Source: Gammaproteobacteria bacterium
GTDB taxonomy: Bacteria > Pseudomonadota > Gammaproteobacteria > UBA4575
Assembly: GCA_965243395.1 (NCBI GenBank)
Contig: CBDEUS010000002.1
Location: forward strand, 378,022 to 442,021
Length of the DNA: 64,000 nucleotides
Reading direction: 5' to 3'
A model generated the notes under the pieces. That model made no database searches. It was given only the letters and a program-made list of their open reading frames with translations, and was not told the DNA's origin. Each line of letters begins with the position of its first letter. Position 1 is the first letter of the stretch. Made by a program: the position numbers and the translations under genes. Shown here in pieces: positions 1 to 45,729 of this stretch.

Positions 1-1308
1 CAACCTATAAATCTCCCCGTAGCCGAATTATTTACTAACCCAAGCCATTTGGTCATTACTAGCACTCCCTCAAAAGCAATTGTTGAAATTGCGGGTGAAG
101 AACAAGGGATAACACCATTTACTTTACGATTAAGCCCTAACATCGAACACAGCATTACTCTCAGCAAACCTGGGTTTAGATCAAATCAGCAAACCGTAAC
201 TTTAAAGCCGGGAGAACAACAGAATATTTCTGCTACTTTGGAAGCGATATTAGGCACGGTGGTTCTTAACATCGAACCACAAGATGCCGAAATTTTTATT
301 AACGGTAAATTTATGGGAAGTGGAAACGTAAAATTATCCTTACCTAGCGCAAGTCAACGCCTAGAAATAAGAAAGTCTGGCTATCAAGTTTTTGAAAGAA
401 TGATTTCTCCAGCAGCTGACTCTCCTCAAGTACTAGATGTAACTTTATCGCGCATCACTAGTACATCCGATATTAGTAAACCTAAGACTTTGCGTACTTC
501 CGAAGGACAAGAGCTAAAATTAATTTTTGGAGGTAAATTTTCTATGGGTGCTGCACGCCGTGAACAAGGACGGCGCTCTAATGAAACCTTACATACTGTA
601 GAATTAGTTAAACCGTTCTATGTCAGTGTGCATGAAATTACCAACCAGCAATATTTAGTCTTTAATAGTTCGCATAGCTCGGGTTCATATAAAGGTCATG
701 ATCTATCTACGGGAAAATTGCCAGTAGTAAATATTAGTTGGGAAGAGGCTGCACGTTACTGTAATTGGTTAAGCATTAAAGATGGGCTAGAACCCGTTTA
801 CCGTGAAAATAATGGTAAGTTAATTGCTAAAAATCCTATACCTTCTGGTTATCGTCTGCTTACGGAAAGCGAGTGGGAATGGGTTGCGCGGGTTAAAAGC
901 AATAATCAAGTATATCGATATGAATGGGGAAACAGTTTTCCTCCCGATAAAGTTACCGGGAATTATGCGGATCAATCTGCTAAAGATTTATTAGACCCCA
1001 TACTACCTGATTATCAGGACAGTTTTATTGTTGCAGCACCTGTAGGAAGTTTTGCCGCTAATCATTTCGGAATTTTTGATATGGGCGGTAATGTTGCAGA
1101 ATGGTGTCATGATTATCATAGTATCTACCCTAGTTTAAGTGATGAAATCTTCACGGACCCGGTTGGTCCAAATACAGGTGATAAGCATGTAATTCGTGGT
1201 GCATCATGGATGCGGGGGGATTTGAGCAGTACACGTTTAAGCTACCGTGATCGAGATAACACTAAACGCACTGATGTTGGCTTTCGAATTGCGAGATATA
1301 TAGACTAA
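1..1308 (+). CDS. PEGA-repeat + FGE-sulfatase (SUMF1/formylglycine-generating-enzyme-like) domain protein; 5' end lies outside the window
   Basis: Frame 1 is open from nt 1, with no stop before the TTG at 49, so the gene begins upstream. Two PEGA-like repeats (LVITSTPSKAIVEIAGEEQGITPFTL; VVLNIEPQDAEIFINGKFMGSG). FGE-sulfatase hallmarks follow (FSMGA, VVNISWEEAARYCNWLS, GYRLLTESEWEWVAR, DMGGNVAEWCHD, IRGASW, DVGFRIAR). Confidence 0.8.
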   Translation, partial: QPINLPVAELFTNPSHLVITSTPSKAIVEIAGEEQGITPFTLRLSPNIEHSITLSKPGFRSNQQTVTLKPGEQQNISATLEAILGTVVLNIEPQDAEIFINGKFMGSGNVKLSLPSASQRLEIRKSGYQVFERMISPAADSPQVLDVTLSRITSTSDISKPKTLRTSEGQELKLIFGGKFSMGAARREQGRRSNETLHTVELVKPFYVSVHEITNQQYLVFNSSHSSGSYKGHDLSTGKLPVVNISWEEAARYCNWLSIKDGLEPVYRENNGKLIAKNPIPSGYRLLTESEWEWVARVKSNNQVYRYEWGNSFPPDKVTGNYADQSAKDLLDPILPDYQDSFIVAAPVGSFAANHFGIFDMGGNVAEWCHDYHSIYPSLSDEIFTDPVGPNTGDKHVIRGASWMRGDLSSTRLSYRDRDNTKRTDVGFRIARYID

Positions 1309-1321
1309 GTGAGTAAACGTT

Positions 1322-1576
1322 ATGATGAATTTGTGTAAATTATTTATTTATATCGTTACTCTGCTTGCATTTACTTTCACGATAGTTAACGCAGAAGAAA
1401 ACGATGGGAATCAAGATGATCAAACTAAAGAAGAACAAGTAACTGAAACAGCTAACAAGGAAAAATCTGTTAAACAAAATGCTAATAAACGCAGTCAGGT
1501 AAAAACACTAGAAAAATTCATTCCTTCAGAAGAAGTCTCAGCGGATAAGCCTGTAGCATTTCCTGCTGATATCTAA
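1322..1576 (+). CDS. small secreted acidic/lysine-rich protein (84 aa), function unknown
   Basis: ATG start 13 nt after the upstream stop. N-terminal signal peptide (LFIYIVTLLAFTFTIVNA/EE). The mature part is low-complexity and rich in E, K, Q. Operon context supports it being real. Confidence 0.55.
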   Translation: MMNLCKLFIYIVTLLAFTFTIVNAEENDGNQDDQTKEEQVTETANKEKSVKQNANKRSQVKTLEKFIPSEEVSADKPVAFPADI

Positions 1577-1595
1577 TCATCATCAATAATAAAAT

Positions 1596-2393
1596 ATGAA
1601 AAAAAATTTTCCATTCGAGTTTATATATCAAATTTTTAGTTTGTTAATAATAATTATCATTGTCCACGCAGCGTATGTTGCTGTAATCCGGCCTAATGCA
1701 GAAGCTGAGCTTGAGCAACAAGCAGCACAAATTAATATTGATAAAGACTATGTGCCTAAACGATCTATTTATGTACTGATCCGTGACTATGAACAAGAAG
1801 CCTGCTTTATTCTAATGTTTTGGGCTTTATGTATTATGGCCTTCAAAAGTATGAACCTATTTCGCGAGCGCAGCTTATTAGACAAAGATTTGCTGCATGC
1901 AAAAGAAGGAATAAAGTTTTTACCTCAAGATACTCGAGAATTATCGAGGCAAATTCAAAATCTGCCTGAAGACGAACAAAAATATTTATTGCCCAGAGCA
2001 CTGAACGTTGCATTGCATCGCTTCAGTTCAACACAAAATATCCAGGATGTGTCTTCAGCAACCACTAATGTATGTGAGTCTGAATCAGAGCGCCTCGATT
2101 CTGAGCTTTCTATTATTCGATACATTACTTGGGCTATTCCATCAATAGGCTTTCTTGGCACTGTGCGAGGTATTGGTGATGCATTAGGCCAAGCCCATAA
2201 AGCAGTCGAAGGTGACATCGCTGGAGTTACAGAAAGCCTGGGTGTTGCATTTAATTCAACGCTTATTGCATTGTGTATCAGTATTGTACTGATGTTTATT
2301 GTGCATCAATTACAGCTTCTGCAAGAAAGGTTTATCTTAGATACACAGAACTATTGTAATAACAATTTAATTCGGCACTTACAGGTTAGTTAG
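1596..2393 (+). CDS. MotA/TolQ/ExbB-family proton-channel subunit (4 predicted TM helices, large loop between TM2 and TM3)
   Basis: C-terminal signature resembles MotA_ExbB: AIPSIGFLGTVRGIGDALGQA ... GVTESLGVAFNSTLIALCISIVLMFIVHQLQ. Two N-terminal hydrophobic helices, then a hydrophilic segment of about 90 aa. Confidence 0.8.
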   Translation: MKKNFPFEFIYQIFSLLIIIIIVHAAYVAVIRPNAEAELEQQAAQINIDKDYVPKRSIYVLIRDYEQEACFILMFWALCIMAFKSMNLFRERSLLDKDLLHAKEGIKFLPQDTRELSRQIQNLPEDEQKYLLPRALNVALHRFSSTQNIQDVSSATTNVCESESERLDSELSIIRYITWAIPSIGFLGTVRGIGDALGQAHKAVEGDIAGVTESLGVAFNSTLIALCISIVLMFIVHQLQLLQERFILDTQNYCNNNLIRHLQVS

Positions 2394-2402
2394 GTCGCTG
2401 AT

Positions 2403-3764
2403 GTGTTCACTATCAATCCCATTATCATTGAATGTTATGACAATGGAATACGCATCTGTGATGATGAGAAAATTCTTGCTGATAGCGCAAGCTTTGCATT
2501 AATTGAAACAAGTCGACACGTTACCGTAGGTCCTTCTGCTCAACAACAAGCTCATCTTCGTCCTCGTGAAGTCAGCACAACATTTTGGAGCGACTTATCA
2601 GCTAACAGCACTACTAAGCATGTTGTAAGTAATGCCGAGCTCGCACTTAATCATTTACATTATGTTTTACAGCAAGCCAATTGCTCGGATCAAGATGCCA
2701 TAGTTATCACTCCCGCAACATTTGATAAACATCACTTAGGTTTACTGCTTGGCATTTGTGAAAAACTGCCCATCAAAATTGTCGGTATCGTCTGCAACGC
2801 TACGCTTGCGATGCAAGGATTTATTGATGATTGCAAAGCTGTATATTTAGATTTATTACAACGAAAATTAGTCTTGACAGAACTTATTCATAGTAATTCT
2901 GGTGTCGAATTAAAAACACCCAGTCGAATTTTTGATTATGGCTTACAGGACTTTGTGCATAACATCGCAAAATTAATTGCTGACAAATTTGTTGCAGAAA
3001 CGCGCTTTGATCCTTTGCATATTGCAAAACATGAGCAACAACTTTTTGATAAATTGCCACTTTGGTTGAATATGTTAAAAAACACGGATAGCACTGAGTG
3101 CAATTTATCCACTGAGGACGAATCATTTTCCATAAATATAAGCCAACAACAACTGCAACAAGCTAATCACCAGCAATTTGATAAAATTGCAGCTTATCTT
3201 AATGTGCTTTTCCACAACCATGATGCGATAGCCATTTATTGTTCATCAAGTTGTCAGCAAGTATTTGGTATGCAAAATTTCTTTTCGAACTTGCCAGGTT
3301 GTGCAGTAATACAGCTTGAAGATGATTCTTTAGCTAAAAATGCTTTGCTTAATAAAGATGAAATTATAAGCAAGGAGCAGGTTTTATACGTAAATAGTTT
3401 ACCTTGGCATTCTAAATTTAAGCCCGACACTTTATCTTTTAATCCTGGGAAAATATCTAACCTTTCAAGTTTACCTACACATATCTTGATTGATGGTCAT
3501 GCATATGGCTTACAACAAGATATTTATATTGCGCATGACAGGTCTTCAAAATTGTTAATCACACTTGAACAGACATCTGAGAGCTTATGCAAAATTTCAT
3601 CTAATAACTTAAGTGTAGATGTTGAGATTTTAAATTCTATAAAAATACAAATGAATTCGATTTCAGTAGAAAATAATGTGCACGCAAAAATAGGCGACAC
3701 ATTAGCTGTTCAGGACTGTTTGACACATTGTCGGTTTATAAAAGTGGTAGAGCATGAAGCGTAG
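2403..3764 (+). CDS. Hsp70/actin-fold-like protein with degenerate nucleotide-binding motifs and a beta-rich (possibly FHA-like) C-terminal domain
   Basis: GTG start. The segment DAIVITPATFDKHHLGLLLGICEKLPIKIVGIVCNATLAM mirrors the Hsp70 stretch AVITVPAYFND..R.A...AG..GL.V.RIINEPTAAA. The phosphate-1 and phosphate-2 Gly loops are absent (IIIECYDNGIRI; VYLDLLQRKLVL). No signal peptide. The 3' end overlaps the next gene by 11 nt. Confidence 0.5.
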   Translation: MFTINPIIIECYDNGIRICDDEKILADSASFALIETSRHVTVGPSAQQQAHLRPREVSTTFWSDLSANSTTKHVVSNAELALNHLHYVLQQANCSDQDAIVITPATFDKHHLGLLLGICEKLPIKIVGIVCNATLAMQGFIDDCKAVYLDLLQRKLVLTELIHSNSGVELKTPSRIFDYGLQDFVHNIAKLIADKFVAETRFDPLHIAKHEQQLFDKLPLWLNMLKNTDSTECNLSTEDESFSINISQQQLQQANHQQFDKIAAYLNVLFHNHDAIAIYCSSSCQQVFGMQNFFSNLPGCAVIQLEDDSLAKNALLNKDEIISKEQVLYVNSLPWHSKFKPDTLSFNPGKISNLSSLPTHILIDGHAYGLQQDIYIAHDRSSKLLITLEQTSESLCKISSNNLSVDVEILNSIKIQMNSISVENNVHAKIGDTLAVQDCLTHCRFIKVVEHEA

Positions 3765-4842
3765 ATCCGTAAATGCTTTTAATTTAGCTTTTTTGGATGT
3801 CATGTTTTGTGGTTTTGGTGCTGTGATACTATTTTTTATGATCATTAATGCTAATACACATGAAAGAAGAGATAAAATAAATTACGAAGTCACAGGTGAA
3901 GTAAATAAACTAGATAAGGAGGTTATAGGCGCACAAAAATTTTTAGTGGAATTGAAAAATTCTTTACAAGAAACAAATGATGAGCTGATTCAAGCACAAG
4001 GTAAGTCACATGAAGTTATCGAAAATATTAAAAAGAATAAAGATCAGCTTGCAAAATTAGACAAAAACACATTAGCCAAGTTAGAAAGCATAGAAAAACT
4101 AAAGGCGGATTTAAAATCGATTGAAGAAGAGAATCAACGTCTTGAAGGTGGTGCAGAAAAGCTATTAGAAGGTGAGCGTCTAAGGCAATTTTCTGGTACA
4201 GGGCATCGTCAATACTTAACTGGACTAAAAATGGGAGGTGAACGAATATTGATTCTAGTGGACACTTCCGCCAGCATGCTAGCAGATCGAATTGTTAATG
4301 TTCTACGTTTTCGAAATTTGCCTCCTGATGAACGCGTACGCGCAGCCAAATGGCAACAGGTACTTTATACCGTAGATTGGATTACCACACGCATACCAAC
4401 TACAAGTAAATTTCAAATTTACAGTTTTAATGAAACGACTTCTGCAACATATGAAGTGGAAGGAGAGCAGTGGTTAGATGGAGGAAATATAAAACACCTC
4501 GACACTGCAGTACATAATTTATTTCAAATAGCACCTGAAAAAGGTACCAATCTTTATAAAGCATTTGAAAGTATTAACCAGTTCTCTCCTCCGCCTGACA
4601 ATATTTATTTGCTAACAGATGGCTTGCCTACAAAAGGTCCCTCGATAAGCTTTGGAAATAAAGTAAGCTCAAAACAGCGTAAAAAATTATATTCTAAAGC
4701 TATACAAGAACTACCAGGTGGCATCCCTGTAAATATCATTTTATTTCACATGGAGGGGGATCCGTTGGCTGCTAGTGAATTTTGGAAATTGGCGCAAAAT
4801 TCTAATGGTGCCTTCTTCAGTCCTGCAAGAGATTGGCCCTAA
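3754..4842 (+). CDS. ExbD/TolR/MotB-like Asp-containing TM anchor + coiled coil + vWA (MIDAS) domain protein, paralog 1
   Basis: The N-terminus MKRRSVNAFNLAFLDVMFCGFGAVILFFMI resembles the ExbD TM helix (FIDVMLVLLIIFMV), including the intramembrane Asp (D15). Residues ~45-150 are heptad-like and rich in E, K, L. The vWA domain has a DxSxS MIDAS motif (ILILVDTSASM) and a later LLTDGLPT motif. Confidence 0.75.
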   Translation: MKRRSVNAFNLAFLDVMFCGFGAVILFFMIINANTHERRDKINYEVTGEVNKLDKEVIGAQKFLVELKNSLQETNDELIQAQGKSHEVIENIKKNKDQLAKLDKNTLAKLESIEKLKADLKSIEEENQRLEGGAEKLLEGERLRQFSGTGHRQYLTGLKMGGERILILVDTSASMLADRIVNVLRFRNLPPDERVRAAKWQQVLYTVDWITTRIPTTSKFQIYSFNETTSATYEVEGEQWLDGGNIKHLDTAVHNLFQIAPEKGTNLYKAFESINQFSPPPDNIYLLTDGLPTKGPSISFGNKVSSKQRKKLYSKAIQELPGGIPVNIILFHMEGDPLAASEFWKLAQNSNGAFFSPARDWP

Positions 4843-4866
4843 GACATTGGTTTTGACATTATTACT

Positions 4867-5874
4867 ATGAAACGACGTCGAAATATTGAAATATTTAGTT
4901 TGTCTTTTTTAGACTGCGTTTGTTGCGGCTTTGGTGCACTGATCTTATTGCTAGTGTTATCCAAAACTGCGGAACCAGTAATTTTTGAAGAGTATTCGCT
5001 CGATCTAGAAAACATATTAGCCAAGTTACAAACCGAGCTGTTTGAAATTCGTGGTGAAACTCATATTTTAAATCGTGATTTAGTCACAAAAAAACAACAG
5101 CTTTCCGAAGAAGTTGAAAAAATTGCATTACTTCAAGCAGATTTATCTTCTATTCTTGGAAAATTCGCTGCTTCAAAAGATAGTTCAAATATACAAAACA
5201 AAATTGAACAGCAACTGGCAACTGCCAAACAAGACCTCACGGAAGAGATGCGTCGATTACAAGAACAACAAAGCAGGCCCAGAACAGAATTTGACGATAC
5301 AGTTGGAGGAATTCCGGTAGATAGCGAATACATTATTTTTATAATTGATACCTCAGGAAGTATGTTTAACCATGGCTGGGGTTCCGTTATACAAAAACTC
5401 TCTGAAGTTTTAGACATCTACCCCAAGGTTAAAGGTATTCAAGTAATGAATGATATGGGTGAATATATGTTCGCCCAATACACAGGAAAATGGATCCCAG
5501 ATACACCAGCAAGACGTAAAGCAATTATTAAACGCATGCGTAAATGGCAAGCTTTTAGTAATAGCAGTCCTGTTGAAGGTATCACAGCCGCGATTAATAC
5601 ATTCTATTCAAAAAATAAAAAAATCAGTTTATATGTGTTCGGTGATGAATTTACCGGTCCTTCGATTCAATCCGTGTTACACGAAGTGAGTCAACTTAAT
5701 CCTAAAAATACTAATGGTAAGCGTCGAGTTCGTATTCATGCAGTAGGGTTTCCGATTCAGTTCAGTCGCCCCGATAGTGAGCAGGGTACCGGAGTTAGAT
5801 TTGCCACTTTAATGCGAGCATTATGCGAGCAAAATGGCGGTACATTTGTAGGTCTAAATTCTCATTATCCCTGA
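4867..5874 (+). CDS. ExbD/TolR/MotB-like Asp-containing TM anchor + coiled coil + vWA (MIDAS) domain protein, paralog 2
   Basis: N-terminus MKRRRNIEIFSLSFLDCVCCGFGALILLLVL with intramembrane Asp (D16). Coiled-coil-like region ~45-140. vWA domain with DxSxS (IIFIIDTSGSM). Same architecture as the upstream gene. Confidence 0.75.
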   Translation: MKRRRNIEIFSLSFLDCVCCGFGALILLLVLSKTAEPVIFEEYSLDLENILAKLQTELFEIRGETHILNRDLVTKKQQLSEEVEKIALLQADLSSILGKFAASKDSSNIQNKIEQQLATAKQDLTEEMRRLQEQQSRPRTEFDDTVGGIPVDSEYIIFIIDTSGSMFNHGWGSVIQKLSEVLDIYPKVKGIQVMNDMGEYMFAQYTGKWIPDTPARRKAIIKRMRKWQAFSNSSPVEGITAAINTFYSKNKKISLYVFGDEFTGPSIQSVLHEVSQLNPKNTNGKRRVRIHAVGFPIQFSRPDSEQGTGVRFATLMRALCEQNGGTFVGLNSHYP

Positions 5875-6088
5875 ATTTTTGATTATACTATTCCACTGGT
5901 TGGCCTTATTCGTGCACTCTGCCCAGTAGGCGATGAGGAGTTGTCACATACTGTGCTTAACTAACTGAATCAGATAGGCTTTTAAGTAAATTTTTAACTC
6001 GCACACAGAATTTTGATCGTTACACTTTGTCGTGAGAAAACTACCGCTCATAGCCTCAATTTAAGCTTAGATCCTAAAGGAGCTCAAA

Positions 6089-6661
6089 ATGTCATTTCCT
6101 AATTCACATGCAACATTCAATTCAATTTATTTGCGGAGTTTATTCAAGTACACCTTAATTTTCATTGCCAGCAGCCTGCTGATTAGCGCCTGCAGCGGTG
6201 ATAAAGAAGATGTACCTGTTGAAAAAGAAGTAACTGAAACTGTTGTTCCGGAAAGCACAAAAGCTACTTCAAACGACATTGCTTCTGAAATTCAAGTGAA
6301 TAGAGAAAAATGGATGGCGCATGAAATTAGTAGTTACCAGATTGAGATGCAGAAAATCTGCTATTGCGTTCCTGAAGTTGTACGCATGATGGTGTTTGAA
6401 GTTGACGAAAATGAAGTGGTATCTGTGCGTTATGCAGACACTGGTGAAGATGTCGATCCACAACACTACGGTGACTTTAATACGATTGAAAGCATGTTTA
6501 CGTTTGTTGAAAAGGCCTTGGAAAAAGATCCAGCCGATCTGTCCATCGCATATCACGATAAGTATGGATACATAAAGGAAATGAGTGTGGATTTTAAAAA
6601 GAACATTGCTGACGATGAGATTTCAATTATCGCCTCAAATATGAGGCCAAAAGAAAATTAG
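6089..6661 (+). CDS. putative lipoprotein (190 aa) with a conserved CxC motif
   Basis: Strong RBS (AAAGGAG) 7 nt upstream of the ATG. Signal peptide with lipobox LLISA|C. CYC motif in QKICYCVPE. Ends 6 nt before the protease gene. Confidence 0.6.
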   Translation: MSFPNSHATFNSIYLRSLFKYTLIFIASSLLISACSGDKEDVPVEKEVTETVVPESTKATSNDIASEIQVNREKWMAHEISSYQIEMQKICYCVPEVVRMMVFEVDENEVVSVRYADTGEDVDPQHYGDFNTIESMFTFVEKALEKDPADLSIAYHDKYGYIKEMSVDFKKNIADDEISIIASNMRPKEN

Positions 6662-6667
6662 GTATTT

Positions 6668-8617
6668 ATGCGATTAGGAGTTGGAACACTAATCTTTTTA
6701 CTTTCGAGCTTAATTACAAACTTTGCATATGCAGCTCCTGAAGTAAACGATTTAACCATCAATGTAGATGGTATCGATTATGCTATTGAACTTAAAAAAA
6801 GTTCTTTCGCAAAGCGTATACAGGTCAATCTAGATACTGAAAGTGACGAAAACCAACCGAGTATAGAACTCTACCAAGGCGATGTGCCAGAAGTACCTGA
6901 TAGTTGGGTAGCCGCTTCCTACTATGATGGTGAATGGCAAGGACTTGCATCCATTCACGATAAATTATACGAGCTAAAAGGTTTTGGAATGTCGGGAACA
7001 GCGCTTGCCGTTCTTGATGGTGATGAATCTGTTTCCATGCAAGCAGATGAACTTGATCTCTCTGGTGATTTTGATATTCATACAATGTGCGCGATGCCAC
7101 ATGCTTATAACGATGCGGCGGCTAGCACTTTAGCTTCTATTCTTCCTAACGCTAACGCGGTTAACAATAATGGCACAGGACAAGGTAATGTAGCTTTTGC
7201 CGTAGGCGCTATTACACAAGCCGTCAACGTAGTGTTAGCACTCGATCAATTTCACACGGCACAGTATGCAGATTCTGTACAACGCGCCATGCGTATTATC
7301 AATAATGTTGATGCTATTTATCGTAATAGCTTGGGTATCGCTATTAATAACACTGCGATACTAAGCTTTGATAACAACAATCCATTATTTGCTGGTATAA
7401 CCGACGCGGAAGTTATTTTAGACCAAGCTATTCTTAATCAAGGCAATGTATTTGGAAATAATCCACGCACACTAGGTGCACTGCTCACTGCGAGAGATAT
7501 ACAAGTACCTTTGATAGGTAACGGCGTTGCAGGCATTGCACCTTTAAATGCCACATGTACTATCATCAATGGATTCGATATTGCGGTGAGTGTAAATGAA
7601 GATCGTGCATCTGAAGGTGTAGCATCTGTCATATTGGCGCATGAAATGGGCCATAACTTTGGCGCCGAACATGATGGCCCTCCTAACAATGCGGCATGCC
7701 CCGTCAGCACTTTTATTATGTCGCCGGTGGTAGCAAATGGGCTAAATGCATTTTCACAATGTTCGAGAGATGAGATCAATGCACATATTGCAAATGGAAC
7801 TTGTTATAAAGAACCTATCGATATTGCTTTAGCTCGCTTTGGAGCACCACCACCTGATAACTTGGCTCAGTTACAAGAAATTACACGTCAAATATCCATA
7901 TCAAATAACGGTACTGTGGCTGTCGCCAATGTGCAAATTGATGGGGATATCGACAATGTAGCCCTTGCCAGATTTACCGAAGTTACCGTAAATGGTGCAG
8001 CGTGCACTTTGTTAGCTGCAGGCAAATCCTATCAATGCAACCTTGCTTCGATTGCTGCAGCCACGCAACAAATTATCAACGAAAAAGTTCAGGTAGTTGG
8101 GTTAGGCACATTTAATTTCAGTGCAAACTTTGATAGCTCGGATGTCACGCAACGCATCGATATCGTTACTAACAATCAATTTGTTACCGATAGTCGTACC
8201 GCGAACCAAGCAGCCGTAGCGCCTGTTGCACCTTCTGGTTTAAGTGCCAGCGCACAAAATACAGGTGACATTGCATTAACATGGGCTGACAATAGTAACA
8301 ACGAACTAAATTTCCAAGTACAACGTTCGACTGGGGGCGGCGCATTTGCAGTTATTGCAAATCTAGCCGCAAACGCAACATCCTATACTGACAGTAATAG
8401 CAACTTAACAGTGGGTACAGCTTACACCTATCAAGTAATTGCCACGAATGCGATAGGCAGTTCGCCTTCAAATCAATCCACTGCAACAGCATTAGAACCT
8501 ACTGTAGCGGCAAGCCCTGCACCTTCATCAGATGACAGTGGTGGTGGCGGCGGCGGTGCCATCTATTTATTTTCAGCAATTCTGTTACTTGCAAGATTAG
8601 TGCGACTCGCTCGTTAA
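6668..8617 (+). CDS. secreted zinc metalloprotease (metzincin, reprolysin/M12B-like) with FN3-like domain and GlyGly-CTERM-type sorting tail
   Basis: Signal peptide (FLLSSLITNFAYA/AP). Extended zinc motif HEMGHNFGAEHD (HExxHxxGxxHD) at nt 7640-7675. FN3-like segment (APSGLSASAQNTGDIALTWADNSNNELNFQVQRS...YTYQVIATN). C-terminus SSDDSGGGGGGAIYLFSAILLLARLVRLAR. Confidence 0.8.
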   Translation: MRLGVGTLIFLLSSLITNFAYAAPEVNDLTINVDGIDYAIELKKSSFAKRIQVNLDTESDENQPSIELYQGDVPEVPDSWVAASYYDGEWQGLASIHDKLYELKGFGMSGTALAVLDGDESVSMQADELDLSGDFDIHTMCAMPHAYNDAAASTLASILPNANAVNNNGTGQGNVAFAVGAITQAVNVVLALDQFHTAQYADSVQRAMRIINNVDAIYRNSLGIAINNTAILSFDNNNPLFAGITDAEVILDQAILNQGNVFGNNPRTLGALLTARDIQVPLIGNGVAGIAPLNATCTIINGFDIAVSVNEDRASEGVASVILAHEMGHNFGAEHDGPPNNAACPVSTFIMSPVVANGLNAFSQCSRDEINAHIANGTCYKEPIDIALARFGAPPPDNLAQLQEITRQISISNNGTVAVANVQIDGDIDNVALARFTEVTVNGAACTLLAAGKSYQCNLASIAAATQQIINEKVQVVGLGTFNFSANFDSSDVTQRIDIVTNNQFVTDSRTANQAAVAPVAPSGLSASAQNTGDIALTWADNSNNELNFQVQRSTGGGAFAVIANLAANATSYTDSNSNLTVGTAYTYQVIATNAIGSSPSNQSTATALEPTVAASPAPSSDDSGGGGGGAIYLFSAILLLARLVRLAR

Positions 8618-10630: not shown

Positions 10631-11056
10631 ATGACAATGTTAAATTTACAAGCAATTTCAGATAAGACGGCTATTAGCTTATCTTTGCTTTGCACCATTC
10701 ACTGTTTGGCGTTACCCCTGTTAGCCGTTTCACTCCCGTCAATTGCAGCACTGCCATTAACTGATGAAATTTTTCATATATGGATGGTCATTGCAGTAGT
10801 ACCAATTTCTGCTTACGCCCTCACTATGGGCTGCAAGAATCACAAACGTTACCAAGTATTATTTATAGGCAGCATCGGCTTATTAATTTTGAGTATTGTT
10901 GCTTTTTTTGGTCATGATTTGTTTGGTGAAGTATTAGAAAAAGCCTTTACCGTCATTGGCGCAACGGTGATTGCTATCGCACATATATGGAACTATCGCC
11001 TATGCCGACATCAAAATCTGTGTGTATGCCCAGAACAAAGCAAAATGACTAATTAA
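10631..11056 (+). CDS. MerC-like membrane protein (metal-transport family)
   Basis: Four hydrophobic helices. The first carries the Cys-containing motif SLSLLCTIHCLALPLLA typical of MerC-domain proteins. C-terminal Cys cluster (CRHQNLCVCP). Confidence 0.5.
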   Translation: MTMLNLQAISDKTAISLSLLCTIHCLALPLLAVSLPSIAALPLTDEIFHIWMVIAVVPISAYALTMGCKNHKRYQVLFIGSIGLLILSIVAFFGHDLFGEVLEKAFTVIGATVIAIAHIWNYRLCRHQNLCVCPEQSKMTN

Positions 11057-11105: not shown

Positions 11106-11744
11106 CTATGCATCCGCTTTGGTTTTGTCAGAAGTCAAACGTAAATCTTGCCAGGCGATTTGAAATACTCGTGCTGCTGATCGTGAAAACATAATTAAAA
11201 GTCCAAATGCAATTATTAAATCTGGCCAGCCAGAATTAAATATCCACACCGCTAATGCAGCTAGAATAACTGCAAAGCCTTCTGCAACATCGTTGCGTGA
11301 GCACTCCCAAGCGGATGCCATGTTTACATCTTTATGCCGGTATGGCGTTAATAACAAGAGACAGCTTAGATTGGCAACTAAATTTACAAGTGCTGCAAGA
11401 CCCATCGTCTCGAAGATAGGAGTTTCAGGGTGTAACAACCGCAAGATAATCACATACGCAACCACCAAAGCCGAACTGAGAATTAACAACCCCTTAAACA
11501 TAGCAACCCGGGCTTTTACATATGGAGCTGCTCCTATCACCATCAAACTTATAACATAGGTTAATGCATCCCCCAAGTTGTCAAGCGCACCCGACAATAA
11601 AGATGCAGAGCCACTGATTTTGGCTGCAATAACCATCATAAGAAAAGTACAAGCATTAATAATAAGAACAACTATGAGAACAAGGCGTTGTTTCTGATTT
11701 AATGCAGAGCTATCAAAATTATTATGGCAACAAATATCTTTCAT
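11106..11744 (-). CDS. cation diffusion facilitator (CDF) family transporter, short form lacking the usual C-terminal cytoplasmic domain
   Basis: CDF membrane-domain motifs (SGSASLLSGALDNLGDALTY; NMASAWECSRNDVAEGFAVILAA). Only 212 aa. Confidence 0.65.
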   Translation of the reverse strand: MKDICCHNNFDSSALNQKQRLVLIVVLIINACTFLMMVIAAKISGSASLLSGALDNLGDALTYVISLMVIGAAPYVKARVAMFKGLLILSSALVVAYVIILRLLHPETPIFETMGLAALVNLVANLSCLLLLTPYRHKDVNMASAWECSRNDVAEGFAVILAALAVWIFNSGWPDLIIAFGLLIMFSRSAARVFQIAWQDLRLTSDKTKADA

Positions 11745-13758: not shown

Positions 13759-15975
<2,217 letters not shown>

Positions 15976-16685
15976 TTAAAATTTCATTGGATGTAATAAT
16001 ACGTACCCCTCTATCATTTATAAATTATATTATTTATATTGTAATAATCGAATATTTCAATCATATAGACTACTGAACAGTTTGCACTTTATTATGCACA
16101 CACTACGCACTATAGGTGTTTCAATTCGGCTACACCTAAGCGTTAAGAAATGACTTTAGAAAGCTAATAAAATACTAGCTAGAGTAAGTTTGAATTTAAT
16201 TGCAGGAAGTGCGGTTAATTTAAGTTAGGAAGCAAGGGAATAGCGTTCAGACTTAGAGAAAGTGGGAGTTGTTGGAGAGAGAGGTTCACTATCTGGCAAT
16301 TCCGCTGTCCTAGAATCCTTGCTTCCTTAGACCGGTAATTTTGCGCCCCTAGCTTTCACTAGGTTTGCCCTTTTCAGTAGTAAAATTACTCCTCAGTAAT
16401 CAACTAACAAATACAGTGTAGTAACTATCTCAGTAAAATTAGTTGAGCCTTCTCACAGTTTTTCTCAACTACCGCTCATCTCAACGGTTAAAAATTCATT
16501 TTTAATCAGAGCCTTATATGCATTCACGAATGAGTGGTGCAATATGCCCGATGAAAATAAATTGTATAACTGTAGTTTTTAACCATCTGAAAATTAGATT
16601 GCTATCATGAAAACAATCAAATTTACTTGTGGATATCAAAGCTGCAAAATTTGTGAATAATTTAATTTACATTGTGGCGGGAACA

Positions 16686-39417: not shown

Positions 39418-40755
39418 GTGGCGAATGTTCTCTGGAAATCCTGTGTTCACAAACTTGAATCTGAGTTATCCGAACAACAACTTAATACTTGGATCCGCCC
39501 TCTACACGCAATAGAGGAGAATGGCGGTTTAACCCTGCTAGCACCCAACCGTTTTGTGCTTGATTGGGTACAAGATAATTTTCTTGCGCGTATCGACGAG
39601 TTAATCGCTGCCAACAATAAATGCGAGCGTCCGGTATGTCTTGAAATAGGCAGTAATAAACACCCAGCCACAACGACGAAACAGGCTGAAAAAATACAAG
39701 TCGTAAGTTCAGCTGCTTCCAAGTTACAAAATTTTAGCCACAACCTGAATCCAAATTTCACCTTTGACACCTTTGTTGAAGGCAAATCCAACCAGCTCCC
39801 TAAGGCAGCCGCCTTACAGGTAGCCAATCACCCGGGAGCCGCATACAACCCTTTGCTTATCTATGGTGGTGTGGGGTTAGGTAAAACACACTTGTTGCAT
39901 GCGATTGGCAACCAGATGTTGGTGCAAAATCCTGCTGCGAAGATTTTATATTTACACTCCGAGCGTTTCGTAGCGGATATGGTGAAAGCATTACAACATA
40001 ACGCTATCAGTGAATTTAAGCGTTTTTATCGCACTGTAGATGCGTTATTGATTGACGATATTCAATTTTTTGCTGGTAAAGAGCGCTCTCAAGAAGAATT
40101 TTTTCATACTTTTAATACTTTGCTTGAGGGCCAACGACAGGTAATACTTACTTGCGACCGCTATCCCAAAGAAGTTGAAGACTTACAAGAGCGCTTGAAG
40201 TCACGTTTCGGGTGGGGCTTAACGCAATCCATTGAGCCGCCTGAATTAGAGACTCGCGTTGCCATCATGCAACGCAAAGCAGAATTACTACAGATTGAAT
40301 TACCCAGTGATGTCGCCTTTTTCATTGGTAAGCGTATTCGTTCCAATATCCGTGAACTTGAAGGCGCGCTTCGCAGAGTCATCGCAAACGCACAATTTAC
40401 CGGATCAGCGATTACTCTAGACTTTGCCAAAGAAGCTTTACATGATTTATTAGCTTTACAAGACAAGCTTGTCACGATCGATAATATCCAAAAAACAGTA
40501 GCTGAATTTTTTAAAATTCGCGTCTCAGATTTACTTTCTGCACGACGCAGTCGTTCAATCACACGTCCTCGGCAAATAGCAATGAGTTTAGCCAAAGAAC
40601 TAACCAATCACAGTTTGCCTGAAATTGGTGATGCCTTCGGTGGCCGGGATCATACAACGGTGTTGCATGCTTGCAGAAAAATAAAAAGTTTAAGGGAAAG
40701 CGATTCGCGTATTAACGATGATTACATCAATCTATTACGCAACTTAAACAATTAA
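39418..40755 (+). CDS. dnaA: chromosomal replication initiator DnaA
   Basis: GTG start. AAA+ Walker [12 protein letters not shown]-terminal DNA-binding motif ([11 protein letters not shown]). Confidence 0.98.

Positions 40756-43266: not shown

Positions 43267-45729
<2,463 letters not shown>

Follow-up and report, generated by a model that had tools for sequence, protein, structure and literature searches.

Ion-driven 5:2 motors power flagella, TonB-dependent uptake, the Tol-Pal system, gliding, type 9 secretion and Zorya defence, and each new output domain recognised on such a motor represents another route by which inner-membrane energy can be delivered to the envelope. The locus considered here lies in a 64,000-nucleotide stretch of DNA (hereafter 'the window') from a gammaproteobacterium of the UBA4575 lineage (NCBI GenBank assembly GCA_965243395.1, contig CBDEUS010000002.1, positions 378,022 to 442,021 of the forward strand). 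Its central elements are two tandem genes whose products, paralogs A (362 amino acids (aa); 3754..4842) and B (335 aa; 4867..5874), each join a transmembrane (TM) helix and a coiled-coil stalk to a vWA head, with a linker before the head in A. Both are encoded on the + strand, as is a MotA/ExbB/TolQ-family channel protein of 265 aa (1596..2393), presumed to form a pentameric ring, in the same block of genes. In our assessment, A and B are probably two non-identical B-type subunits of a 5:2-class ion-driven motor whose ring is the MotA-like protein, a reading under which the family is predicted to fuse a motor axle directly to integrin-type binding heads.

Proteins of this kind have already been predicted in print. 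Section 8 and Fig. 4c-d of a recent paper ('Origin and Evolution of Bacterial Periplasmic Force Transducers', Mol Biol Evol 2025; PMC12204202) present, under the name 'TPH-vWA', a group of vWA proteins with TM tethers that are closely associated with tolQ homologs where there is no tolR or exbD and that carry a conserved trans-pore-helix Asp and no SHLS motif. These proteins mostly come in heterologous pairs, and their hosts belong to Proteobacteria and the PVC group. Proteins of Idiomarina loihiensis served as the seeds of that prediction, and an AlphaFold 3 complex puts two Asp residues inside a ring of threonines. All of these described features (a TM-tethered vWA domain, an orphan tolQ homolog, the Asp, no SHLS motif, and occurrence in pairs) are found at the present locus, and it is on them that the TPH-vWA identity of A and B rests. 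An initial reading of the window, made from the DNA letters and open reading frames (the 'sequence-only reading'), had stated that it knew of no such combination; the same arrangement had in fact been predicted in that paper. The main text of the paper makes no mention of MIDAS (the metal ion-dependent adhesion site), heterodimer, coiled-coil, kinase or Hsp70, nor of formylglycine, sulfatase, PEGA or GldK, and 'FHA' occurs there solely within 'FhaC'. The stalk, the MIDAS and six further conserved genes are thus not discussed in its text, and the conserved eight-gene context, together with the invariant peptide tail of a small secreted protein (S, described below), are the most useful new leads.

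When the locus is set beside the ExbB-ExbD and TolQ-TolR motors, the likeness lies in a MotA/ExbB-family ring with two pore threonines and a proline, and in partner proteins with a short basic N-terminus, one TM helix, an Asp of the essential type and the pentapeptide F-[IL]-D-V-M. Beyond that pentapeptide A and B show no detectable homology to ExbD or TolR; moreover, two different B subunits are present here as opposed to a homodimer there, and no TonB/TolA-type third partner accompanies them. The AglR-AglQ-AglS gliding motor of Myxococcus has one TolQ-like ring gene and two different TolR-like partners. Agl-Glt is described as a large apparatus spanning the envelope, with TPR proteins and a vWA protein among its components (PMC9946355, PMC11761067). 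The combination of one ring gene with two different partners is shared, whereas the vWA domain of Agl-Glt resides on a separate outer-membrane lipoprotein (the adhesin CglB) and is not fused to a B subunit, and the remaining gene content differs (no GltA-K homologs were seen here, and none were sought). GldL-GldM with GldK/GldN provides another parallel, in which a single-TM dimer within an inner-membrane ring reaches through the periplasm, by way of a long stalk, to a protein of the FGE fold. GldL, however, is not known to belong to the MotA/ExbB family and GldM is a homodimer with a different charge pair; likewise GldN, SprA and other type 9 secretion genes do not occur in the cluster.

Two further systems resemble the locus in the domains of its heads and neighbours. 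The TagQ/TagR/PpkA/Fha1 pathway also spans the envelope with a lipoprotein, a periplasmic FGE-fold protein, a periplasmic vWA domain, a Ser/Thr kinase and an FHA protein; unlike the present arrangement, its vWA domain is fused to the kinase (in PpkA) and neither a MotA-like ring nor a coiled-coil stalk forms part of it. TagR is taken as an FGE-fold protein on its COG1262 label, COG1262 being the FGE/SUMF1 group. TagR is reported to interact with the C-terminal domain of PpkA, the extracellular sensor domain of which is a vWA domain (PMC3224232), and is listed as COG1262 in a 2026 review (PMC13584744). The BatA/BatB proteins of the Bacteroides aerotolerance operon are similar in being tandem membrane-anchored vWA paralogs with TPR neighbours, and BatB structures (3ibs, 4jdu) are among the top fold matches of the head. 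Bat operons contain MoxR and DUF58 genes and are not known to include a MotA-like gene, nor are Bat proteins known to have a TM Asp or a coiled-coil stalk. Assignment of the locus to a BatA/BatB-type operon was rejected, there being no MoxR or DUF58 gene among the annotated neighbours.

Translation of the open reading frames (ORFs) bears out what had initially been reported of the two paralogs: each starts with MKRR at the coordinates given above, each has a single TM helix with one Asp, reading FLDVMFCGFGAVILFFMI and FLDCVCCGFGALILLLVL as had been quoted, and the DxSxS sequences VDTSASM and IDTSGSM stand in the C-terminal domains of A and B. The E. coli ExbD helix with which they had been compared (FIDVMLVLLIIFMV, containing Asp25) matches the K-12 record, and the paralogy of A and B is reflected in 26% identity (E = 2e-13) spanning the N-terminus and stalk. 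Each protein has one hydrophobic segment, located at its N-terminus (residues ~8-36). The TM helix of A comprises residues 11-31 (3784-3846), with an invariant Asp15 (3796-3798), and that of B residues 12-32 (4900-4962), with an invariant Asp16 (4912-4914). Neither helix contains a His residue, hence neither contains the His-containing SHLS motif. The N-terminal flank carries a net charge of +3 in both proteins and the C-terminal flank a net charge of 0 in A and -3 in B, from which the positive-inside rule predicts an N-in, C-out topology and hence, as had been proposed, a periplasmic location of the stalks and heads. Just outside the membrane, Pro37 (invariant) and Glu41 (nearly so) are features of B that have no counterpart in A.

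The heptad-like stalk of about 100 residues that had been noticed corresponds to residues 32-131 in A (3847-4146) and extends to about residue 145 in B; the fraction of Leu, Ile, Val and Met at its a/d positions is 0.51 (A) and 0.44 (B), as compared with 0.25 +/- 0.05 in composition-matched shuffles (z of ~5 and ~4, respectively). In an AlphaFold2 (AF2) model of A, built on 32 homologs and with a mean pLDDT of 84, residues 8-131 form an unbroken helix, which is followed by a low-confidence linker (residues 132-163; 4147-4242) bearing a conserved GxRQYLTGLKxGG motif and by the head (residues 164-362; pLDDT >90). Comparison of the modelled A head, using Foldseek, with solved vWA domains (CLCA1, ITIH1, BatB, integrin I and Cav alpha2delta) gave E values of 1e-5 to 1e-7, confirming for the head of A only both its Rossmann-like alpha/beta vWA fold and the vWA identity assigned to it earlier. 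The Pfam VWA_2 model scores 24.0 bits for A and 16.5 bits for B, both under the gathering cut-off of 27, and it is therefore the fold match that establishes the vWA domain; many orthologs carry precomputed PF13519 or PF00092 matches. The MIDAS of A is made up of D170-x-S172-x-S174 (4261-4275), T265 (4546-4548) and D289 (4618-4620). In the head of B, an invariant D161-T-S-G-S165 (5347-5361) and D260 (5644-5646) are accompanied by an invariant loop, F-S-N-S-S-P-V-E-G (residues 230-238), at the place of the canonical MIDAS Thr.

The sequence-only reading had made its proposal depend on the TM Asp being kept in orthologs, and the residue proves to be invariant in both paralog families. For A, conservation was examined in 108 full-length sequences (107 representatives and the window protein, with identity down to ~30%): the Asp is present in 95/95 sequences that are ungapped at the position, and is also invariant in an alignment of 32 sequences that share 28-71% identity with the protein of the window. 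The MIDAS residues of A are conserved in 104 (D170), 108 (S172), 104 (S174), 92 (T265) and 106 (D289) of these 108 sequences. For B, among 83 sequences (82 orthologs and the window protein), Asp16 is present in all 83, and there is likewise no variation in D161-T-S-x-S165 or D260. A basic start with the consensus MxxRR is retained throughout the family, and the B-specific head loop, Pro37 and Glu41 imply that the two subunits are not equivalent. The invariance of the TM Asp extends across Gammaproteobacteria, Desulfobacterales, Acidobacteriota, Planctomycetota, Kiritimatiellia and Myxococcales, and the family as a whole is found in at least six phyla of diderm bacteria. It is also large: a word-indexed search returned more than 4100 clusters, an exhaustive search of 50%-identity representatives returned 1375 proteins at E <= 0.001 (271 at E <= 1e-30), and a pattern scan of one genome per species gave at least 589 confirmed matching stretches which, given that A and B can each match the pattern, correspond to at least some hundreds of species.

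Gene order was compared across 83 related loci (L001-L083), each with up to +/-10 kb of surrounding sequence. The 80 best loci derive from Gammaproteobacteria, Desulfobacterales, Acidobacteriota, Holophagae, Kiritimatiellia, Myxococcales, Isosphaeraceae and Burkholderiales, and an additional locus from Brocadiaceae (L001) was obtained in a separate look-up. Eight genes, in the constant order U, T, F, S, MotA-like, X, A, B, recur in almost all loci whose flanks are long enough. All 79 loci in which both paralogs are covered have B after A on one strand, together with one MotA-like gene only, an arrangement that fits a heterodimeric axle. Between the TM Asp and the Asp of DxSxS there are, in all phyla, 153-157 residues for A and 142-145 for B, and this fixed length suggests a ruler-like constraint on the stalk.

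The putative ring protein is recognised by the Pfam MotA_ExbB model (1.1e-14) and retains the pore signature of its relatives. T189 (2160-2162) aligns with TolQ T145 and ExbB T148, T222 (2259-2261) with TolQ T178 and ExbB T181, and Pro182 with TolQ P138, each being conserved in 68/68 sequences; the protein seems to have four hydrophobic segments, as in MotA, versus three in ExbB and TolQ. Searches (phmmer) with E. coli ExbD and TolR identified no homolog in the window or in the 83 loci, while searches with TolQ identified, as the only match in each neighbourhood, the operon's own MotA-like protein. The ring is thus an orphan with an intact pore signature, and A and B are its sole single-pass, Asp-bearing neighbours.

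The six ORFs F, S, MotA-like, X, A and B form a tight block on the + strand at 49-5874 of the window, with intergenic gaps of 9-24 nucleotides and an overlap of 11 nucleotides between X and A. A scan of positions 1-6700 for promoters and terminators gave no signal above shuffled expectation, and the block, being so closely packed, therefore reads as a single operon. A small hidden ORF encoding an ExbD-like protein was ruled out, the intergenic gaps being merely 9-24 nucleotides long. The locus is chromosomal, about 35 kb from dnaA and gyrB (both within the same window), and nothing similar to it was found in a plasmid collection. A PADLOC scan of the window gave a weak ZorA match to the ring protein (1.2e-4) and a compositional ZorB match to the signal peptide of S (0.0054), with no defence-system assignment for the cluster.

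Protein F is represented in the window by its C-terminal part (49..1308, +), the start of the gene being upstream; it consists of PEGA repeats (Pfam PEGA 2.3e-22) followed by an FGE-sulfatase-fold domain (1.9e-41). Full-length orthologs of F are ~690-830 aa long, and the long forms comprise, in order, an FHA-like N-terminal domain, a TM segment, four to five PEGA repeats and the FGE fold; a profile of the N-terminal domain matches FHA structures (EssC and Ki-67) at 4.5e-4 to 1e-3. The best NCBIfam match of the FGE domain is GldK/PorK (9.3e-30 for the fragment in the window and 6e-35 for a full-length ortholog), but the scores (104 and 121 bits, respectively) fall far short of the TIGR03525 cut-off of 350, and so F is not a member of that family. 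Read directly in the window sequence, the region of F after RGASW contains none of the catalytic cysteines of FGE enzymes, and the domain is thus probably structural. Protein S (84 aa; 1322..1576, +) is small and secreted, with a hydrophobic N-terminal signal peptide, a charged and variable K/E/Q-rich spacer and a C-terminal motif, and in the window it ends KFIPSEEVSADKPVAFPADI-COOH. Conservation of S is confined to its last ~20 residues, which follow the pattern F-x-P-[ST]-E-x(8-12)-[FY]-P-x-D-I-COOH; in ~70 of 75 loci, drawn from six phyla, the ORF immediately preceding the MotA-like gene ends in ...[FYLM]PxDI. Candidate receptors for this C-terminus are the MIDAS heads or, alternatively, the periplasmic TPR domain of protein T.

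Protein X (453 aa; 2403..3764, +) is cytoplasmic, with an Hsp70-like fold resembling the nucleotide-binding domain (NBD) and a C-terminal beta-sandwich. The window protein has no Pfam match, whereas in orthologs at 23-29% identity the sandwich scores as an FHA domain (PF00498). An AF2 model of X (pLDDT 89.9, pTM 0.80) matches the NBDs of DnaK, BiP and Ssb in Foldseek at E values of 1e-14 to 1e-17, with TM-scores of ~0.66-0.70 on targets consisting of the NBD only. The phosphate-binding loops of Hsp70 are not recognisable in the consensus of the X family, and X may on this account be a non-catalytic scaffold. Proteins T and U are encoded upstream of the window start and are known here from the related loci. 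T crosses the membrane once, between a tail in the cytoplasm and TPR repeats in the periplasm, and in several lineages bears a full N-terminal Ser/Thr kinase domain (Pkinase, E of 1e-37 to 1e-40; for example at 3085-5049 in L008, 2741-5053 in L060 and 3619-5826 in L042). In the closest relatives of the window T is 507-517 aa long and has no kinase domain, and kinase-bearing T is paired with long F in 15 loci versus 2 with short F; this distribution hints that control by phosphorylation may have been lost in the lineage of the window. U, a lipoprotein of ~400 aa that heads the cluster (for example at 348-1532 in L003), has a lipobox Cys after its signal peptide in most lineages sampled and 23 residues that are invariant across phyla; no relatives of U were detected in Pfam, NCBIfam or PDB sequences.

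The assignment of A and B as B-type subunits has to be weighed against a number of results that speak the other way. The Pfam ExbD and MotB models match neither the full-length proteins nor 41 N-terminal fragments at E values of up to 10, NCBIfam offers no B-subunit match for either protein, and a profile of the N-terminal region compared with PDB sequences found no B subunit. Smith-Waterman comparisons with ExbD, TolR, MotB, ZorB, C. jejuni MotB and Paenibacillus MotB1 gave z values of 0-3.9 (2000 shuffles each), which are unconvincing after multiple tests, although such homology tests have little power on a helix of ~25 residues. Profile matches limited to a TM segment are in any case unreliable. 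Neither a periplasmic ExbD/TolR-type fold nor an OmpA-like peptidoglycan-binding domain is present in A or B, where coiled coil and vWA domain take up the corresponding region, and the periplasmic part of the two proteins resembles no known B subunit. In the ring, the equivalent of TolQ E173 and ExbB E176 is Val217 in place of Glu. The MIDAS Thr position is not conserved among the 83 sequences of B, which have the FSNSSPVEG loop instead, and to judge by these residues the head of B appears only partly canonical as a MIDAS-type vWA domain. Finally, no deletion phenotype is reported for the vWA transducers in PMC12204202.

What remains of the ExbD-like helix that had initially been proposed is therefore the shared F-[IL]-D-V-M pentapeptide and the genetic context; the similarity itself is not statistically significant. 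Membership of A and B in the ExbD/TolR sequence family (PF02472) is unsupported, and the claim made here is one of functional analogy, backed by context. The features of a B subunit that are present are the N-in TM helix with its basic tail, an invariant Asp close to where that helix meets the cytoplasm, and linkage to a gene for a ring protein that keeps the pore threonines. Domain anatomy, residue conservation, gene linkage and the lack of a canonical B subunit at these loci are matters of observation, and taken together with them the sequence evidence supports the interpretation first put forward.

In the mechanism that we consider most plausible, A and B would insert N-in and side by side within the MotA-like ring, presumably in a 5:1:1 stoichiometry, with the invariant Asp near the cytoplasmic end of each helix acting as proton acceptor and facing the ring threonines, and with protons arriving from the periplasmic side. 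The two helices would then continue as a heterodimeric coiled coil of ~100 residues (~15 nm), near-constant in length between phyla, which would carry the two vWA heads deep into the periplasm. There the head of A, with its complete MIDAS, might bind an acidic ligand via a metal ion, while the head of B could contribute its DxSxS, distal Asp and own invariant loop. Proton flow would rotate the ring relative to the axle, thereby placing torque or tension on whatever partner is bound to the heads. The most likely partners are products of the same operon, namely the FGE-fold/PEGA protein F (for which the reported contact between TagR and PpkA, an FGE-fold protein and a vWA domain, is a precedent), the lipoprotein U and S, with its acidic C-terminus. 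The TPR domain of T is an equally possible reader of that C-terminus, since acidic C-terminal peptides are known to be clamped by TPR domains. On the cytoplasmic side, the FHA and Hsp70-like domains and, in some lineages, the Ser/Thr kinase domain would probably gate assembly or activity.

A different output is envisaged if the same set of proteins constitutes a sensor and not an engine, that is, a trans-envelope signalling device with a logic like that of the type VI secretion threonine-phosphorylation pathway, delivering information as opposed to mechanical work. In such a scheme the heads, F and U would sense the state of the envelope, and the MotA-like protein with A and B (which may still occupy the ring) would relay it to the FHA, kinase and Hsp70-like readers, much as ZorAB is thought to report envelope perturbation. 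The overlap in domain repertoire with TagQ/TagR/PpkA/Fha1 (a lipoprotein, an FGE fold, a Pkinase domain, and FHA domains on both X and F) favours this explanation, as do the pairing of FHA-bearing long F with kinase-bearing T noted above and the reported interaction of TagR, the COG1262 protein, with the vWA domain of PpkA (PMC3224232, PMC13584744). However, many lineages, including the closest relatives of the window, have no kinase; the Arg/Ser/His motifs by which FHA domains bind phosphothreonine were not found in the X protein of the window or in the consensus of its family; and there are no type VI genes nearby. The strict length of the stalk and the presence of two MIDAS heads also look more mechanical, and on balance we regard a signalling role as unlikely.

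Less probable still is the suggestion that A and B are peripheral anchors, that is, periplasmic vWA adaptors comparable to BatA/BatB, or to side-binders of the TonB/TolA type, that lie outside the MotA-like complex or bind other products of the operon, in which case the TM Asp would serve in pairing of the A and B helices instead of proton transfer and the ring would use an unlinked B subunit or work alone. The helix is without significant homology to ExbD, TolR or MotB, the head finds one of its best structural matches in BatB, and a separate vWA family predicted to bind the side of the motor is described in PMC12204202, all of which is compatible with such a placement. On the other hand, A and B do not have the His-containing SHLS motif that the same paper ascribes to side-binders, all 83 loci have the MotA-like gene without an ExbD/TolR gene beside it, and the MoxR and DUF58 genes of Bat-type operons are missing from the annotated neighbours. 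A buried and absolutely invariant Asp, at the depth seen in ExbD and TolR and beside an orphan ring with pore threonines, is hard to explain if the helices stand outside the ring. An inverted topology, in which the vWA heads would reside in the cytoplasm and work with the FHA, kinase and Hsp70-like proteins, has in its favour that these partners are cytoplasmic. Cytoplasmic vWA domains do exist in other systems, and the arrangement would then resemble that of vWA-FHA-kinase signalling modules located in the cytoplasm. Nevertheless, N-termini of only 10-11 residues with three to four Arg or Lys, C-terminal flanks that are neutral or acidic, and a basic MxxRR start kept across the family all oppose it, as does the periplasmic location (by signal peptide, lipobox or TM position) of the other large products of the operon, and we give this possibility very little credence.

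A broader proposal, which goes beyond the assignment of A and B as B-type subunits and which we advance only tentatively, is that the pair forms the drive shaft, of fixed length, of an eight-component trans-envelope machine shared by bacteria from Gammaproteobacteria to Planctomycetes, with heads that grip an operon partner and cytoplasmic modules that switch it, and that this machine would represent a new functional class of 5:2 motor. GldLM-GldKN would then be a parallel design assembled from different parts. The eight-gene context offers candidates for the load (the FGE-fold protein, the lipoprotein and the secreted peptide) as well as for regulation (the FHA, kinase and Hsp70-like domains). 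For genetic work, the cultured carriers Pseudohalioglobus sediminis NY5 and Halieaceae strain WMMBA4 are available, and Idiomarina loihiensis is a further one (PMC12204202).

The remainder of the window contains several other features. Directly 3' of B are genes for a DUF6174 protein (6089-6661, +) and an fn3-containing zinc metalloprotease of the reprolysin type (6668-8617, +), the C-terminus of which (poly-Gly, a hydrophobic helix and a basic tail) resembles a GlyGly-CTERM sorting signal. Both genes are also located 3' of the cluster in a 71%-identical relative (L003) and not in the Brocadiaceae locus (L001), such that their linkage is probably lineage-specific. A MerC-family gene (10631-11056, +) and a cation-efflux family gene (11106-11744, -) are adjacent and divergent in strand as listed, and no further mer genes were noticed around them. 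A c-di-GMP-I riboswitch (16292-16379, -; 80.8 bits, E 2.6e-14) precedes by ~340 nucleotides a gene of the catalase-peroxidase type (13759-15954, -; Pfam peroxidase 9e-70), which, to our knowledge, seems an unusual target for this riboswitch class. Finally, dnaA (39418-40755) and gyrB (43273-45729) are present on the + strand, separated by two ORFs of the size of dnaN and recF, and the cumulative GC skew reaches its minimum at ~36-40 kb; the window thus spans the chromosomal replication origin.

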